A DNA stretch of 64,000 bases from Acidobacteriota bacterium (lineage in GTDB: Bacteria; Acidobacteriota; Vicinamibacteria; Vicinamibacterales; UBA2999): the NCBI GenBank assembly GCA_016192845.1, contig JACPTI010000091.1, positions 11,444 through 75,443 of the forward strand, written 5' to 3'. Positions 3,504 through 55,801 of the stretch are shown here, one piece after another. The translations under genes and the position numbers were made by a program. The notes beneath the pieces were generated by a model. The model did not search any database. It saw nothing but the letters and a program-made list of their open reading frames with translations, and was not told the origin of the DNA. Numbering within the stretch: position 1 is the stretch's first letter; each line of letters opens with the position of its first letter.

Positions 3504-3596
3504 AGGCTACCTACCAGCTACCAGCCACCGGCTACCAGCTACCGGCTACCGGCTACCAGCTACCAGCTACCAGCTACCAGCTACCAGCTACCAGCT
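3504..3596. repeat. Direct tandem heptamer array, CTACCAG x about 13 (variants CCACCGG, CTACCGG)
   Basis: Read directly. Units are in phase from 3511 to 3594. The array lies between the mreB stop (3484-3486) and the convergent ferredoxin stop (3595-3597). No complementary arm is present. Confidence 0.95.
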
Positions 3597-3951
3597 ATTT
3601 CGTCGTCCATTCCGGCGGAGGCTGGATCGTCGGCAGTGGCGTGCGGCCGGAATCGGGCCGGCCGCTGCCGGCGAGCCGGCTGATGGCGCGCACGGTCATG
3701 TCGTGGTCGCACGTGATCTGACACGACAGGCGGACGCCGGTCAGCCCTCGCTCGGCGAGTCTGGTCTTCTCTGCGATCGTCATCCGCTCCGGCTCGCCGC
3801 TCACGAATTCCACGCGGCACGTCGTGCAGCGCGCGTTCCCGCCGCAGGCGTGAAGGATGTCGACGCCGGCGTCCTGCTCGATCGCGAGCACGAGGCGCTT
3901 CCCAGGCTCCACCTCCACGGCGGCGAATCCTTCGACGGTCAGCTTCGGCAT
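3595..3951 (-). CDS. Plant-type [2Fe-2S] ferredoxin
   Basis: CGGNARCTTCRV...C cysteine pattern; 118 aa. Confidence 0.85.
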   Translation of the reverse strand: MPKLTVEGFAAVEVEPGKRLVLAIEQDAGVDILHACGGNARCTTCRVEFVSGEPERMTIAEKTRLAERGLTGVRLSCQITCDHDMTVRAISRLAGSGRPDSGRTPLPTIQPPPEWTTK

Positions 3952-3977
3952 GCGGCTATGTTAACGTAGCCGTCTGA

Positions 3978-4505
3978 ATGCCCGACGCGCCCGCGACACC
4001 CCGACCCTCGCAACTCTGGAAGCGGCTGTCACCCGATCGCAAGCTGCAGGCGGCGGAGGCGTTCTGGCGCGACGAGAACGCCGCGTCCGAGCAGGCGGAC
4101 GCGATTGCGGCGATCGCGCAGCGGATCCGGTTCCGCGTGAAGAGCGTCCACGCGATGCCGCTCGAAAAGAAAGTCCGGCAGCTTCTCGCGCTGCCCGCCG
4201 TCTCTGAAGCCGTCGCCGCGCGGCTTCTCGTGGCGTATCACCTGGCGCATCAGCGCCCGATGATGGGCCGCTTTCTCGACGCGCTGGGCATCGCCCACGA
4301 GGACGGCCTCATCGCCGACGAAAACCTCGCCGCGCCGCCGCCGGACCGTCTGCGCGCCGCGGCGCAGACGCTCGCCTCATCGTGTCCCGCCGACGAGGTG
4401 TCGCTCTATTTTTCGACGCTGCTGTGGCAGGACCCCGAGACATGGAGCAGCCTGGCGGACCTCCCGCAGGTCCGCGAGTCGACTCCGGCGCCGCAGCGCT
4501 CCTGA
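3978..4505 (+). CDS. Conserved hypothetical protein
   Basis: 175-aa ORF with balanced composition (..AFWRDENAASEQADAIAAIAQRIRFRVKSVHAMPLEKKVRQLL..). No family recognised. Confidence 0.55.
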   Translation: MPDAPATPRPSQLWKRLSPDRKLQAAEAFWRDENAASEQADAIAAIAQRIRFRVKSVHAMPLEKKVRQLLALPAVSEAVAARLLVAYHLAHQRPMMGRFLDALGIAHEDGLIADENLAAPPPDRLRAAAQTLASSCPADEVSLYFSTLLWQDPETWSSLADLPQVRESTPAPQRS

Positions 4506-4514
4506 GGCATTCCC

Positions 4515-5252
4515 ATGGACTGGATGACGACGCCGGAGGGGTGGATTGCCCTCCTGACGCTGACCGTACTGGAGATCGTCCTCGGCATCGACAACGTCAT
4601 CTTCATCTCCATTCTCGCCGGAAAGCTGCGGCCGGAGGAGCGCGGCCGCGCGCGCAGGATCGGCTTGACCCTCGCGATGCTGATGCGGATTGCGCTGCTG
4701 CTGTCGATCACGTGGGTCATGCGGCTGACCTCCCCGCTCTTTGCCGTGGCGGGGCAGGACATCTCCGGGCGCGATCTGATTCTGATCGTCGGCGGGCTGT
4801 TCCTGCTGGCCAAGAGCACGTACGAGATTCACGACAAGCTCGAGGGCGAGGAAGGGCACGGATCAGCCAGGGTCGCGGCCTCGTTCGCCTCGGTCATCGT
4901 CCAGATCATGCTGCTCGACATCGTGTTTTCGCTCGACTCGGTGATCACGGCGGTCGGCATGGCGGAGGACGTGGTCGTGATGATTCTCGCGGTCGTCGTC
5001 GCGGTGGCGGTGATGCTCGTCTCCTCCGGACCGATCGCGGCGTTCGTCGACCGACACCCGACAGTGAAGATGCTGGCGCTCAGCTTTCTGCTGCTGATCG
5101 GAGTGTCACTCGTCGCCGAAGGGTTCGACCAGCACATCCCGAAGGGCTACATCTACTTCGCGATGGGCTTCTCGGTCTTCGTCGAGATGATCAATCTGCG
5201 GGTGCGCGCCAAAGCGCCTCCTGTGCATCTCCACCAGGCGTACACGCAGTAG
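4515..5252 (+). CDS. TerC-family integral membrane protein
   Basis: LEIVLGIDNVIFISIL and a second DSVITAVG motif. Several hydrophobic helices. Confidence 0.85.
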   Translation: MDWMTTPEGWIALLTLTVLEIVLGIDNVIFISILAGKLRPEERGRARRIGLTLAMLMRIALLLSITWVMRLTSPLFAVAGQDISGRDLILIVGGLFLLAKSTYEIHDKLEGEEGHGSARVAASFASVIVQIMLLDIVFSLDSVITAVGMAEDVVVMILAVVVAVAVMLVSSGPIAAFVDRHPTVKMLALSFLLLIGVSLVAEGFDQHIPKGYIYFAMGFSVFVEMINLRVRAKAPPVHLHQAYTQ

Positions 5253-5275
5253 GTGCGAACTTCGACGTCGTCTAA

Positions 5276-5947
5276 CTAACGGTCTGACTCCAGGATCATA
5301 CGTATCCAGTTCGCCACGCGCGCGCCGACGCTGGCGTACGTGTGCGCCGGCGGAACGCCTCGAGTTCCCAAGGAGTGATCGCCGCCAGCAACGACGTCGA
5401 GCGTTACTGGCGCCTGCATGGTGTCGAGCACGGGTGCCAGCTCGGCGGGTGTTCCAAACGGATCGCGTTCACCCTGCACAACGAGCATCGGGATCTCGAT
5501 GGCCGGCAGATGCGCCAAACGCAGTTGATGCGGCTTGCCGGGGGGGTGAAGGGGATACCCGAGTGCGAACACGCCCTTCAGCGGTTCCCCGGCGGCGGCG
5601 AGGTGCGTCGCGATGCGTCCGCCCAGGGATTTCCCGCCCGCGAAGAGTGCGTCAATGCGGGGGCGGGATTCGCGCGCCATGGCGATGACCTGCCGGAAAC
5701 AATCCTCGAGCGTTGCCGGCGGATCCGGGACGCGCCGTCTCTGGGCCATGTACGGGAAATCGAACGTCACGACGTCGATGTGCGATTCGGCGAGCCGGCG
5801 GGCGACATTGACGATGAACGGATGGCGCTGGCCGGCGCCCGCGCCGTGCGCCAACACCACGCGCGCGAGAGGTGATTCCGTAGAAGCCGAATAGCGGCTG
5901 GCAGTCGTGCGATGTGCACCGACGATCACGTCGAATTCCGTCGTCAT
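5276..5947 (-). CDS. Alpha/beta-fold hydrolase (dienelactone-hydrolase-like, COG3571-type)
   Basis: LAHGAGAG..., nucleophile elbow GGKSLGG, C-terminal GGDHSL. Confidence 0.75.
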   Translation of the reverse strand: MTTEFDVIVGAHRTTASRYSASTESPLARVVLAHGAGAGQRHPFIVNVARRLAESHIDVVTFDFPYMAQRRRVPDPPATLEDCFRQVIAMARESRPRIDALFAGGKSLGGRIATHLAAAGEPLKGVFALGYPLHPPGKPHQLRLAHLPAIEIPMLVVQGERDPFGTPAELAPVLDTMQAPVTLDVVAGGDHSLGTRGVPPAHTYASVGARVANWIRMILESDR

Positions 5948-5956
5948 GCCGCCCGG

Positions 5957-54662: not shown

Positions 54663-54669
54663 GAGTTCT

Positions 54670-54718
54670 GGGGTCAGACCCCGGTGACGAGTCCTGCGGG
54701 GGTCAGACCCCGGTGACG
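54670..54718. repeat. Two direct copies of a 20-nt unit GGGGTCAGACCCCGGTGACG, each containing the palindrome GGGGTC-A-GACCCC
   Basis: Copies at 54670-54689 and 54699-54718, downstream of the DUF5916 stop. Confidence 0.9.
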
Positions 54719-54735
54719 GGGCGACTCAAGGTTGG

Positions 54736-54752
54736 GTTGATCCAATATCAAC
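54736..54752. promoter_or_regulatory. Inverted repeat GTTGAT-CCAAT-ATCAAC upstream of SahR-like copy 2 (candidate operator)
   Basis: 6-bp perfect arms in an AT-rich patch 35 nt upstream of the ATG at 54787. Confidence 0.3.
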
Positions 54753-54786
54753 TGCAGTGTAATATTCCATCCGGATAGACGGATAC

Positions 54787-55722
54787 ATGGTCGCGATTCT
54801 CGACCACATGTCGGCGCTGGCCGACCCGACGCGCTGCCGCATCCTGCTGCTGCTCGAACAGCATGAGCTGACGGTCTCAGAGCTCTGCGCCGTGTTGCGG
54901 CTGCCGCAGTCGAGCGTCAGCCGGCACCTGAAGACCCTGGCCGACGACGACTGGGTGGTCTCGCGCCGCGACGGTACGAGCCGCTTCTACAGCATGCCGC
55001 TCGACGATCTCGACTCCGGGGCGAGCCGGCTGTGGCCGCTCATCCGGGAGCAGGTGGCCGGCACGGCGACTGCCGGCCAGGACGAGCAGCGACTTCGCGG
55101 CGTGCTCGCGCGGCGGCGCGCGCGGTCGCAGGAATTTTTTGCGAACGCCGCAGCCGGATGGGACCGGCTCCGCGGCGACCTGTTTGGCGACACGTTTTAT
55201 CTGTGGGCGCTGCTGGGCCTCATCGATCCCTCGCTCACCGTGGGCGACCTGGGATGTGGAACGGGGCAACTCGCCGAGACGCTCGCGCCGCACGTCCACC
55301 GCGTGATTGCGGTCGATGCCTCGCCCGACATGCTGACGGCGGCGCGGACGCGGCTGGGCGGATTCCCGAACGTCGACGTCCGGCAGGGCGAGCTCGAGAC
55401 GCTGCCGCTCCAGGCGGGGGAGCTCGATGCGGCGCTGCTGTCGCTGGTGCTGCACTACTCGCCCGATCCGGCGCGCGCGCTGGCCGAAGTGGCGCGCGTC
55501 CTCCAGCCGGGCGGCCGCGTGCTCATCGTCGACATGCTGCCGCACGACCGCGAGGAGTACCACCAGCAGATGGGCCACGTGTGGCTTGGGTTTTCGGAGA
55601 AGCAGATCTCACGGTTCCTGACAGGAGCGGGGTTCGGCAACGTGCGCGTCCGCGCGCTGCCGGTCGATCCCGATGCGAAAGGGCCGGCGCTGTTTGCAGC
55701 AATCGCGACACGGCACCGGTGA
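54787..55722 (+). CDS. ArsR-type wHTH + SAM-methyltransferase-like domain regulator (SahR-like), copy 2
   Basis: ..ALADPTRCRILLLLEQHELTVSELCAVLRLPQSSVSRHLKTL.., then DLGCGTGQL...LQPGGRVLIVD. Confidence 0.75.
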   Translation: MVAILDHMSALADPTRCRILLLLEQHELTVSELCAVLRLPQSSVSRHLKTLADDDWVVSRRDGTSRFYSMPLDDLDSGASRLWPLIREQVAGTATAGQDEQRLRGVLARRRARSQEFFANAAAGWDRLRGDLFGDTFYLWALLGLIDPSLTVGDLGCGTGQLAETLAPHVHRVIAVDASPDMLTAARTRLGGFPNVDVRQGELETLPLQAGELDAALLSLVLHYSPDPARALAEVARVLQPGGRVLIVDMLPHDREEYHQQMGHVWLGFSEKQISRFLTGAGFGNVRVRALPVDPDAKGPALFAAIATRHR

Positions 55723-55724
55723 AA

Positions 55725-55801
55725 GCACAATGCGAAATGCCCAACGCACAATGCAAAAAGCCAAAAGCGTCATCATTGGCCTTGAGCATTGGGCATTGAA
55801 G
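55725..55801. repeat. Heptamer-periodic imperfect hairpin (GCNCAAT-type x7 / ATTGGGC-type x4) in the ahcY leader
   Basis: Units are in phase from 55725. The last unit ATTGAAG runs into the ahcY Shine-Dalgarno (GAAGGAG), 9 nt before the ATG at 55810. Confidence 0.8.

Follow-up and report, generated by a model that had tools for sequence, protein, structure and literature searches.

Hairpin elements with arms of tandem 7- to 9-nucleotide units in an uncultured acidobacterial genome

Background

Tandem arrays of short units have been described for Xanthomonas, where Rehm et al. (2015) found approximately 185 GGGAATC heptamer arrays per genome, mostly of about four units (range 2-26). Between 70 and 75 of these arrays are close inverted pairs able to form stem-loops, and the arrays are biased towards non-coding sequence and are scarcer between divergent genes (PMC4692102). 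Enrichment of heptamers and other long units among simple sequence repeats (SSRs) is known for large, GC-rich genomes from a 2007 SSR survey, to the extent that the survey is cited in PMC4692102. Here, we analyze a 64,000-nt stretch of contig JACPTI010000091.1 (hereafter "the window"), in which a first-pass annotation had listed thirteen loci built from tandem 7-, 8- or 9-nt units and arranged as direct arrays or as hairpins. Its source is an uncultured, Vicinamibacteria-like member of the Acidobacteriota: the closest relative of the window's methionine synthase (MetH; 87% identity) comes from "Acidobacteria bacterium RIFCSPLOWO2_02_FULL_68_18", and GTDB species representatives at 66-69% MetH identity are Vicinamibacterales. 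Burkholderia, which the 68% GC content and the heptamer arrays at first brought to mind, was rejected on account of these MetH relatives. We find that the observation is real, dense and non-random, and that the loci are not one thing, comprising several dispersed families, plain arrays and one conserved coding tail. The explanation we prefer, in which we place about even confidence, is that the families are foldback-type dispersed repeats with microsatellite arms that evolve by slippage and persist where they are harmless, any role at gene 3' ends being secondary.

Foldback transposons of eukaryotes (Drosophila FB, Galileo and Tetris) have inverted arms of short tandem subrepeats, the number of which varies between copies and between arms. 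They are kilobase-sized, with a variable central part and identifiable transposases, and their resemblance to the elements described here is one of architecture only. Among prokaryotes, the TAACTGA heptamers of Beggiatoaceae, cyanobacteria and Bacteroidetes occur as 169 direct sets versus one inverted set (MacGregor 2015, PMC4679880). Inverted arrays are not mentioned in "Satellites in the prokaryote world". In-frame insertions of repetitive extragenic palindromes (REPs) into open reading frames (ORFs) are already known (PMC3733652), as are those of the Rickettsia palindromic element (RPE), as far as the latter is treated in that source.

Results and discussion

Array density and hairpin structure

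Of the 13 loci, 12 gave arrays with a period of 7, 8 or 9 in Tandem Repeats Finder (Table 1); the sole locus missed, 55725, is too degenerate for the program and still forms a 23-pair hairpin. At a score cut-off of at least 40, the window holds 18 arrays of period 7-9, whereas 100 shuffles that preserved its dinucleotides gave 0.13 on average and never more than 1. Comparison with shuffled sequence, a check named by the first-pass annotation, therefore places the array density far above chance. Strict inverted pairs of arrays number six in the window and none in the 100 dinucleotide shuffles.

An inverted-repeat finder recovered the two-armed design at 7716-7800, 18456-18535, 23959-24062, 25198-25277, 30511-30590, 32656-32737 and 49590-49664, with arms such as 28 nt at 100% complementarity (18456-18532) and 40 nt at 88% (23959-24062), and folding gave the same design at 8975-9047 and 24684-24742. 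Eight loci are single long hairpins of -31.6 to -69.2 kcal/mol (z = -5.4 to -10.5), and for these eight none of 200 shuffles folded as well. The folds of 8975 and 55725 are weak, and 3504 and 43873 are truly one-armed. A complete element is an imperfect palindrome of 60-110 nt, with arms of 2-7 copies of a 7-, 8- or 9-nt unit and a loop of approximately 10-21 nt. The common design that had been proposed is confirmed: tandem units are followed by a loop richer in AT and then by inverse units in tandem, and the GC content of the loops is 0.46 versus 0.67 for the window.

Two of the 13 loci are weak, namely the degenerate hairpin 55725 and 33739, which is a conserved coding tail of a helix-turn-helix (HTH) methyltransferase. 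The tail is of equal length and similar sequence in the window and in the related loci L081, L083 and L084. Since its length is the same in four species, 33739 is at most a fossil array and is not to be counted as active; an apparent copy-number polymorphism relative to L081 (6 versus 4.4 copies) was dropped because the protein tails are equally long. In other species, strong arrays of period 7-9 are rare, with eight in total across 80 metH-centered loci (~1.5 Mb), three of them in one metagenome-assembled genome (MAG) of the Vicinamibacterales. Given this rarity, the density of 11 robust loci in 64 kb is a property of the lineage.

Table 1. Array and hairpin loci of the window, with the metH gene that contains two of them. 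Loci are named after their start in the first-pass annotation; z compares the folding energy with that of shuffled sequence. ABC, ATP-binding cassette; FMN, flavin mononucleotide; Hcy, homocysteine.
Locus	Position	Strand	Feature	Fold	Context
3504	3511-3597		One-armed array, (CTACCAG/CTACCGG)x12.4	z 0.3	Between convergent mreB (2407-3486, +) and ferredoxin gene (3595-3951, -); last CTA of the array is the ferredoxin stop codon
7718	7716-7800		9-mer hairpin, (CCACGAARN)x4 / loop TTGTTTAAAGAAT / (TTCGTGNNN)x4; 36-nt arms, 81% complementary	-42.4 kcal/mol, z -8.6	Between tandem (+ +) rsgA and cyclophilin genes
8975	8975-9047		7-mer hairpin, (GCAGTAG)x2.9 / (GCCGACT)x5	z -2.1	Between convergent cyclophilin (+) and dinB (-) genes
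18457	18456-18535		7-mer hairpin, (GGTTGGT)x5 / (ACCAACC)x4.4; 28-nt arms, 100% complementary	-69.2 kcal/mol, z -10.5	Between divergent start codons of apaG/DUF525 (-) and ABC transporter (+) genes; fills the whole spacer
23958	23958-24062		7-mer hairpin, (CAAGTCA)x7.4 / (CCTTGTG)x5.3	z -8.0	Between tandem (- -) 204-aa gene and FMN-dependent dehydrogenase gene; from the stop codon of the former to 2 nt before the ATG of the latter
24684	24684-24742		7-mer hairpin, (CAGTAGG)x2.7 / (CCTACTG)x4	z -5.4	Between divergent 204-aa gene (-) and 137-aa gene (+)
25197	25197-25280		7-mer hairpin, (GGTTGGT)x5 / (AACCACC)x4.4	z -6.8	Bounded exactly by the stop codons of the 137-aa gene (+) and the convergent glnA (-)
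metH	29870-33739	-	Cobalamin-dependent methionine synthase, 1289 aa		Complete, all five Pfam domains
30491	30491-30610	-	8-mer hairpin, (CACCGAGN)x3 / (NCTCGGTG)x3; stem extension CACGKACC	-56.4 kcal/mol, z -8.4	MetH residues ~1044-1083, activation domain
32666	32654-32740	-	7-mer hairpin, (GGGATCC)x4.4 / (CCGGATC)x4.3; loop of GAACCNN heptamers	-60.5 kcal/mol, z -5.6	MetH residues ~335-362, Hcy/pterin linker
33739	33739-33780	-	Weak 7-periodic stretch, GCCCAAA-like, 75% matches		Codes for the basic C-terminal tail of the HTH-methyltransferase (33736-34704)
43873	43874-43908		One-armed 9-mer array, (CGAACGANT)x3.9	z -1.3	From the arginine decarboxylase (-) stop codon to a candidate start codon (CAT, ~43866-43868) of a putative small gene on the same strand
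49581	49590-49664		8-mer hairpin, (CACCGAGA)x3 / (CCTCGGTG)x3; same family as 30491; extension ACGTAC...TTCCGTG	z -6.3	Between convergent pepF (+) and histidine kinase gene (-)
55725	55725-55801		Degenerate 7-periodic hairpin, GCNCAAT / ATTGGGC	z -2.5	From the stop codon of the second HTH-methyltransferase gene to the ahcY Shine-Dalgarno sequence

Copying of whole elements

The octamer family, with the general pattern (CACCGAGR)n-loop-(YCTCGGTG)n, has two copies in the 64-kb window, 30491 and 49581. In addition to the unit, these copies have in common a stem extension of approximately 9 nt at either end, CACGTACC... and ...GKTCCGTG. The pattern (CACCGAGN)2-gap-(NCTCGGTG)2 gave at least 120 matches in JGI soil and sediment metagenomes (loci L085-L204), corresponding to 114 distinct elements with unrelated flanks. 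As this sample was chosen by two exact units per arm, conservation of the unit is there by construction, and it is the flanks, the loops and the eighth position of the unit that are informative. Among the matches listed, a partly conserved extension, ACG[AGT]A[AC], lies outside the octamer arms and pairs over approximately 6 nt, and loops are connected by 516 k-mer links versus 183 in shuffled loops. One loop subfamily, recognized by AATTCATTCCRRTTT in one or the other orientation, comprises 49581 and more than 10 contigs. The shared stem extension and the loop subfamilies indicate that whole elements have been copied and have not merely grown in place.

Copies are found within and between genomes. 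At least three octamer copies lie on separate contigs (L101, L102 and L138) of Ga0156279, an IMG assembly that seems to represent the RIFCSP genome, as one copy overlaps the L081 region. Another lies on a contig of lower GC content (L155; 0.49) with a thiolase whose closest named homologues, at 79% identity, are in Blastocatellia MAGs, so that the octamer family seems to span at least two acidobacterial classes. Metagenome contigs with the octamer also carry other SSR hairpins (AACTCCC/GGGAGTT, GGGGATC, CACGGAGA and CACAGAGA). In IMG/VR, the 8-mer hairpin had one match and the GGTTGGT hairpin had none, and carriage by phages was rejected accordingly; the 23958 element had no match in a plasmid database.

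Evidence of the same kind exists for heptamer families. The three pairs of loci previously said to share a unit (18457/25197, 8975/24684 and 30491/49581) were all confirmed, and a fourth, 33739 with 55725 (both GCNNAAN), had been overlooked. The 18457 and 25197 elements have alike loops as well as a common unit, and the perfectly complementary arms of 18457, together with its absence from relatives, are consistent with a recent copy. A CAAGKCA element at 8967-9050 of an unrelated contig (L166) belongs to the family of 23958, and the unit family of the one-armed array 3504 forms a two-armed hairpin at another locus in L081 (15367-15511).

In approximately 30% of octamer hairpins, GTGAA(A) occurs 10-11 nt past one arm (TTCAC 15-17 nt on the other side), and rarely do both occur. 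An outer TTCAC...GTGAA was considered as a terminal repeat and rejected as inconsistent, with one side present, at a fixed distance, in approximately 30% of elements; the motif could belong to a longer element of asymmetric build or be a signal of a neighboring gene.

Gain, loss and decay of units

The first-pass annotation held that slippage and copying both operate, and both are supported, the former by unequal arms and by variant units confined to one arm and the latter by shared extensions and loops. At 23958, arm 1 is (CAAGTCA)7, and arm 2, read as its complement, is (CAAGGCA)4 plus one outermost CAAGTCA-type unit; the arms thus differ by one fixed base per unit and in copy number (7 versus 4-5). 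The right arm of 8975 consists of (GCCGACT)4 followed by one GCCTACT. At both loci, a variant unit has thus spread in one arm only. Among the octamer matches listed, arms are unequal in 36 of the 114 elements, and core substitutions are one-sided in 85 cases versus 6 that are compensated. The eighth position is a purine in one arm and a pyrimidine in the other, and forms Watson-Crick pairs no more often than by chance (57 of 146 versus 64.6 expected). The octamer arms therefore fit frequent, independent gain and loss of units with little or no selection on pairing. Octamer loops have a GC content of 0.38 versus 0.65 for their contigs, as is expected for unconstrained sequence under a GC-to-AT mutation bias. 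At one site, a direct array in L001 stands against a hairpin in L002.

Loops of 7-9 nt are too large for MutS-dependent mismatch repair. Slippage loops of this size would then escape repair, which would explain the unit sizes. On contig L146 (320-402), two non-complementary arms, (TAGGGGT)x4, of telomere-like appearance, and (CGGATCC)x4, follow one another; arms of different families can evidently be juxtaposed.

In-frame insertions in metH

The loci 30491-30591 and 32666-32739 had been taken as intergenic; both lie in frame inside metH and are free of stop codons. Each insertion leaves the conserved ORF in frame and coincides with a gap in homologues: both positions are gaps or unaligned blocks relative to solved MetH structures, the block at 30491-30610 being unaligned to human MetH. 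Among 25 MetH orthologues there are only two hypervariable places, which correspond to 32666 (site 1; 7-45 residues) and 30491 (site 2; 2-45 residues). The inserts of relatives are translated from DNA of these same kinds. The peptides GIGDRGS.../RIPDPRSPIP derive from GGGATCN heptamers, HRGTEAPR... and its partner peptide from CACCGAGN octamers, RPERERPERER from a direct array, and VRLKPDTTYE and VGADLQVGP from classical REP hairpins. In the DNA itself, the window and L083 carry a hairpin at site 1, L084 carries a direct-only array there, and the site is empty in L081. At site 2, the octamer hairpin is common to the window and L081, L084 has a CCGGATC array, and L083 has no insert. Read directly from the sequence, the units resident in metH are stop-free in all six frames, and this accounts for the ability of these families to live within coding sequence. 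Colonization of MetH in frame is striking but has precedent.

Beside the octamer hairpin, at 30492-30514, a 12-nt tandem duplication (CACGCCCACGGT / CATGCCCACGTA) adds four residues to MetH and is absent from L081.

Orthologous sites in relatives

Spacers at the element sites measure 2-23 nt in relatives versus 36-105 nt for the window elements. At the 18457 site, the divergent start codons are separated by 92 nt in the window, by 17 nt in L084, and by 23 nt with only GTTGGTGGT in L081. At the 23958 site, the 105-nt hairpin of the window contrasts with 9-10 nt in L081 and L084, and at the 24684 site L084 has a degenerate GCCTACTG-like remnant. The 55725 site is empty in L205 and L206 (14-15 nt, Shine-Dalgarno sequence only) and holds a REP in L207. 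The 43873 array is common to L081/L205 (x3.8), and L206, with an annotated spacer of 2 nt, lacks it. The spacer after glnA has an SSR hairpin in the window, REP hairpins in L084, and in L081 a large (GGTAGGT)9/(CTACCGG)9 hairpin, absent from the window, whose unit is that of the 3504 array. After pepF, an SSR hairpin in the window is matched by other GC hairpins in L206 and a REP in L207. Overall, REPs in relatives sit in three of the same spacers and in both metH sites. These differences indicate that, as species diverge, elements come and go at gene boundaries, in niches that they share with REPs.

Several further observations concern these sites and REPs. The short distance between the ABC transporter and apaG start codons in relatives (17-23 nt; L081 21301-21373, L084 22705-22723) leaves no room for an intergenic promoter, so that the promoters would lie in the neighboring genes or the transcripts would be leaderless. 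Classical REP-like hairpins of the form GTCCGGCTGAAGCCGGAC(ACCACGT) occur in the window at 13719-13890, 13140-13200 and 18045-18066, with three copies in one spacer, and in MetH of the relatives P0012 and P0013 this sequence is read in frame as VRLKPDTTYE. Two tandem copies of a second REP-like hairpin, GGGGTCAGACCCCGGTGAC, lie at 54670-54720, upstream of the second HTH-methyltransferase gene. L081 and L082, essentially one strain (99.99% identical), have identical SSR arrays, and a 40-nt indel between them near 17892-17941 is outside the SSR elements.

A model of dispersal, slippage and tolerance

Our preferred explanation can be set out in four steps. First, whole elements (arms, loop and short stem extension) would be copied within and between genomes; the 8-mer family shows such copying, and we extend it to the others. 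Candidate agents are template switching primed on unit-like microhomologies or a putative hairpin-recognizing enzyme. Second, each arm gains and loses units independently, as the unequal arms, the spread of variant units in one arm and the one-sided substitutions show, and elements decay until one-armed arrays or seeds of 1-1.5 units are left, replication slippage being the probable cause. Third, as their distribution shows, elements survive only where they are harmless: between the stop and start or stop codons of packed genes, for the most part at 3' ends, and, if the unit is stop-free in every frame, at two surface linkers of MetH, where they are in frame. These are the niches of REPs in relatives. 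Fourth, a hairpin may be a topologically neutral insertion that keeps flanking stop and start codons adjacent. Such adjacency at the stem base, as at 23958, may be what makes elements tolerable between genes whose distance in relatives is 2-10 nt. The elements may secondarily act as 3'-end structures without a T-tract, a role that we do not take to be the reason for their existence.

A number of results weigh against this explanation. In the window and across 2.2 Mb of fetched loci, a regular-expression test, and no other, gave no HUH motif like that of the REP-associated tyrosine transposase (RAYT), a Pfam scan of 20 window ORFs turned up no transposase, and no target-site duplication was seen in three filled/empty comparisons (18457, 23958 and 55725). 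The "empty" sites of L081 carry unit-sized sequences (GTTGGTGGT for 18457, CCCGGGA for metH site 1), which could be deletion remnants or microhomology seeds for template switching; we favor the latter as a working model. Copying of the 7-mer and 9-mer families rests on one or two cross-locus matches. Finally, the arms at metH site 2 are approximately 90% identical between the window and L081 and the loop is unalignable, which suggests constraint on the arms, homogenization or parallel insertion; for this site, a purely neutral view is insufficient.

The model may be taken further, to a class of prokaryotic foldback mobile DNA that would not have been described before. It would consist of microsatellite-armed palindromes, with units found across classes of Acidobacteriota (CACNGAGR, GGGATCN, CAAGKCA, GGTTGGT, GGTAGSY and others), that spread by unit-recognizing machinery or by transposase-free template switching seeded on unit-sized microhomology, and that time and again remodel conserved proteins through in-frame insertions in linkers. 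We offer this extension tentatively and regard it as somewhat unlikely.

Functional structure or local origin

The elements could instead be primarily functional structures, such as terminators without a T-tract, protectors of mRNA 3' ends or devices coupling stop to start codons, with arms that tune the length of the stem. We consider this doubtful. The elements are located between convergent, tandem and divergent genes, as the first-pass annotation stated, the 13 loci comprising four convergent, four tandem, two divergent and three coding contexts. Its statement that they frequently fill the space between flanking codons is wrong for the two metH insertions and the coding tail at 33739. At 7718, the rsgA stop codon (TAA) lies in the loop, so that arm 1 is translated. 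A strong 3'-end bias is evident from the arrays in four of the five convergent spacers longer than 80 nt, and from octamer elements with callable flanks among the matches listed, of which 12 are convergent, 16 tandem and 2 divergent. The bias fits a secondary 3'-end role and the REP pattern equally well. For REPs, it has been explained by selection against promoter insertions (PMC3733652), and purifying selection of this kind would be expected to produce it here also.

The first-pass annotation was right that the elements are not simply terminators. Intrinsic terminators were rejected because no T-tract follows the stem and the terminator search flagged no whole hairpin. The only terminator site inside a hairpin is a 6-pair sub-stem in one arm of 32666 (32669-32688), the element flanks have no T-runs, and loops of 10-21 nt exceed the usual terminator size. 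Canonical terminator-like sites are not enriched in the window (31 versus ~27 expected), so something else may terminate transcription. A functional reading also draws on the very stable stems, on the stop and start codons at the stem base of 23958, and on the finding of SSR, REP and plain GC hairpins in the same spacer across species, which look functionally equivalent. However, elements are also present in divergent start-to-start spacers (18457 and 24684) and in metH, close relatives manage with 2-23 nt at the same sites, and, with 6 compensated versus 85 one-sided substitutions, the stems are not kept by compensation. Selection at the RNA level was rejected for want of strand asymmetry in folding energy or G-U use, of correlated pairing at the eighth position, and of more than a few compensatory changes. 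The divergent and metH sites, the absence in close relatives and the rarity of compensation argue that tolerance, and not function, explains placement.

Unlikely as well is a purely local origin, in which a chance seed expands by slippage and is inverted by fold-back (snap-back) duplication. On this view, elements do not move from site to site, and loci have units in common through preferences of mutation or structure. The unit-like seeds (1-1.5 units) at the empty L081 sites, the alternation of hairpin and direct-only states at orthologous sites, the independent expansion of arms, and the failure to find a transposase or a target-site duplication would all follow from it. It cannot explain at least 114 distinct elements of the same 8-mer with shared extension and loops and unrelated flanks, nor the similar loops of 18457 and 25197, and random pairing at the eighth position is not expected soon after a fold-back duplication.

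Comparison with described repeat systems

The first-pass annotation did not recognize the design. [quoted passage not shown] No match at the gathering threshold was found among 4227 Rfam covariance models; the sub-threshold hits were only eukaryotic microRNA precursors (24.6-36 bits versus thresholds of 80-107), which are generic artefacts of long hairpins, so that in the Rfam check named earlier no described RNA family was matched. CRISPR was rejected since the units are 7-9 nt and contiguous, in contrast to 24-48-nt repeats with spacers. Miniature inverted-repeat transposable elements were rejected since there is no target-site duplication at 18457, 23958 or 55725, no parent insertion sequence is known, and the element is almost entirely stem. 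A full-text search for the unit strings found no paper in the library covered, and literature searches on tandem or hairpin repeats in Acidobacteria, on foldback elements and on short tandemly repeated repetitive (STRR) sequences gave as precedents only single-unit heptamer systems and REPs. The elements are inverted long-unit SSRs with REP-like dispersal, a little-described variant with known precedents.

As in Xanthomonas, tandem repeats are above chance, close inverted pairs occur, non-coding sites are preferred and divergent sites are few, and the GGGATCC unit of 32666 fits the GGGNATC consensus. Xanthomonas has a single G-rich unit that has been read as a G-quadruplex former, whereas approximately 10 unrelated 7-9-nt units are found here in 64 kb. 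Also unlike Xanthomonas, two arms are the rule, loops and extensions are shared, two translated insertions lie in an essential-type enzyme gene, and the host is an acidobacterium. The TAACTGA and cyanobacterial STRR heptamers are likewise abundant in intergenic arrays, often a few nt from a start codon, with patchy phylogeny and no known transfer mechanism; in contrast to the present elements, they have one unit per genome and are nearly always direct (PMC4679880). RPEs are similar in being palindromes inserted in frame at permissive surface positions of conserved proteins with the ORF kept, and differ, in the account given in PMC3733652, in having a fixed sequence of 100-150 nt, no microsatellite arms and hosts with reduced intracellular genomes. 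Here, insert length varies by unit number and several families compete for two sites.

REPs and their paired form, REPINs (PMC3116915, PMC3733652), are also short dispersed palindromes, located for the most part downstream of genes and between ORFs that are convergent or co-directional, and able to supply stop codons and to occupy in-frame ORF sites. The elements may be divergent REPs or REPINs mobilized in trans by a RAYT-type HUH tyrosine transposase encoded elsewhere, which we consider quite improbable. In keeping with it, the palindromic families are dispersed and occupy REP niches, in-frame ORF sites included, GTAG (the REP tag of Di Nocera 2013, PMC3733652) occurs in several units (CAGTAGG, GGTAGGT and CTGGTAG), and one array provides a gene with its TAG stop codon, which is frequent for REP termini too (PMC3733652). 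REPs, however, are imperfect palindromes of 20-40 nt with a single terminal GTAG or CGTC tag and a RAYT gene, while the arms here are variable tandem arrays. GTAG and CGTC are lacking in most families, no terminal tag is common to the window families, and GTAG is seen only within some units; the lack of an HUH motif in 2.2 Mb is weak evidence, as RAYTs are single-copy genes. REP/REPIN and in-frame REP/RPE insertions match the ecology of the elements and not their arm architecture or tag.

It is very improbable that the units are recognition sites, whether G-quadruplex formers, protein-binding iterons or DNA-uptake sequences in inverted arrays. GGGATCC is of the GGGNATC type capable of G-quadruplex formation studied in Xanthomonas and Nostoc (PMC4692102), the eighth position of CACCGAGR keeps its purine/pyrimidine identity unpaired, as a constraint on the unit would have it, and the unit is conserved in apparently two acidobacterial classes. 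However, runs of three G are missing from GGTTGGT, CAAGTCA, CAGTAGG, CACCGAGR, CCACGAAGG and others, only 32666 fitting GGGNATC; the coexistence of approximately 10 units in 64 kb argues against one uptake signal or binding protein; and unit conservation in the metagenome set follows from the construction of the search. An assembly artefact is effectively refuted: the window is a metagenomic contig and assemblers can mis-size arrays, but elements of the same kinds are present in NCBI, ENA and JGI assemblies of separate projects, orthologous elements are common to the window and L081, both metH insertions are in frame, as are the variable insertions in 25 orthologues, and every array is shorter than a typical read.

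Implications

In soil, Acidobacteriota rank with the most abundant bacteria, and what is known of their genomes comes mostly from MAGs. Where hairpin microsatellites are dense, they create spurious or extended ORFs (GIGDPGS/RIPDPGS peptides, for example, are translations of arms), inflate the length variation of conserved proteins such as MetH, and mark fast-evolving sites that could serve in strain typing. They provide a tractable case for the birth, copying and loss of palindromic repeats with no obvious transposase, show that secondary structure of -56 to -60 kcal/mol is tolerable within coding sequence, and bear on whether hairpins replace canonical terminators in a lineage apparently without them. 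If copying proves to occur by template switching on unit-sized microhomology, this would be a general route of repeat dispersal in bacteria.

Gene surroundings and minor features

The genes that flank the elements are ordinary housekeeping genes (mreB, ferredoxin, rsgA, cyclophilin, dinB, apaG, ABC transporter, glnA, pepF, histidine kinase and ahcY), and gene order is mostly common to the window, the RIFCSPLOWO2_02_FULL_68_18 MAG and two more metagenomic contigs. GC content in the window ranges from 0.59 to 0.71, and there are no tRNA genes.

Paralogous fusions of an ArsR-type HTH domain with an S-adenosylmethionine-dependent methyltransferase are encoded directly upstream of metH (33736-34704) and ahcY (54787-55722), the junction with metH being an ATGA stop/start overlap. 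The arrangement beside metH and ahcY is conserved in relatives, which suggests that the fusions are dedicated regulators of the methyl cycle. At 34817-35250, only fragments remain of a type III glutamine synthetase gene that is intact (725 aa) in L081, L083 and L084; it is probably a decayed pseudogene within a 0.9-kb non-coding stretch.

Between 24000 and 29900, GC content falls to 0.62. In this region, the window glnA (25281-26696) is 60% identical to the syntenic glnA of L081, versus 87-96% for neighboring genes, and a glnE-like adenylyltransferase gene (26879-29005) occupies a place that is vacant in relatives; the region looks like a replacement or insertion. The lowest GC content of the window (0.59) belongs to a carbon-monoxide/xanthine dehydrogenase-type cluster at 58302-62776 (flavin adenine dinucleotide subunit, CoxG, 2Fe-2S subunit and molybdopterin subunit), which has no SSR hairpins and may therefore have been acquired more recently. 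At 973-1064, in a 1-kb stretch with no called gene, there is an unrelated inverted repeat of 31 nt (77% complementary, 30-nt loop).

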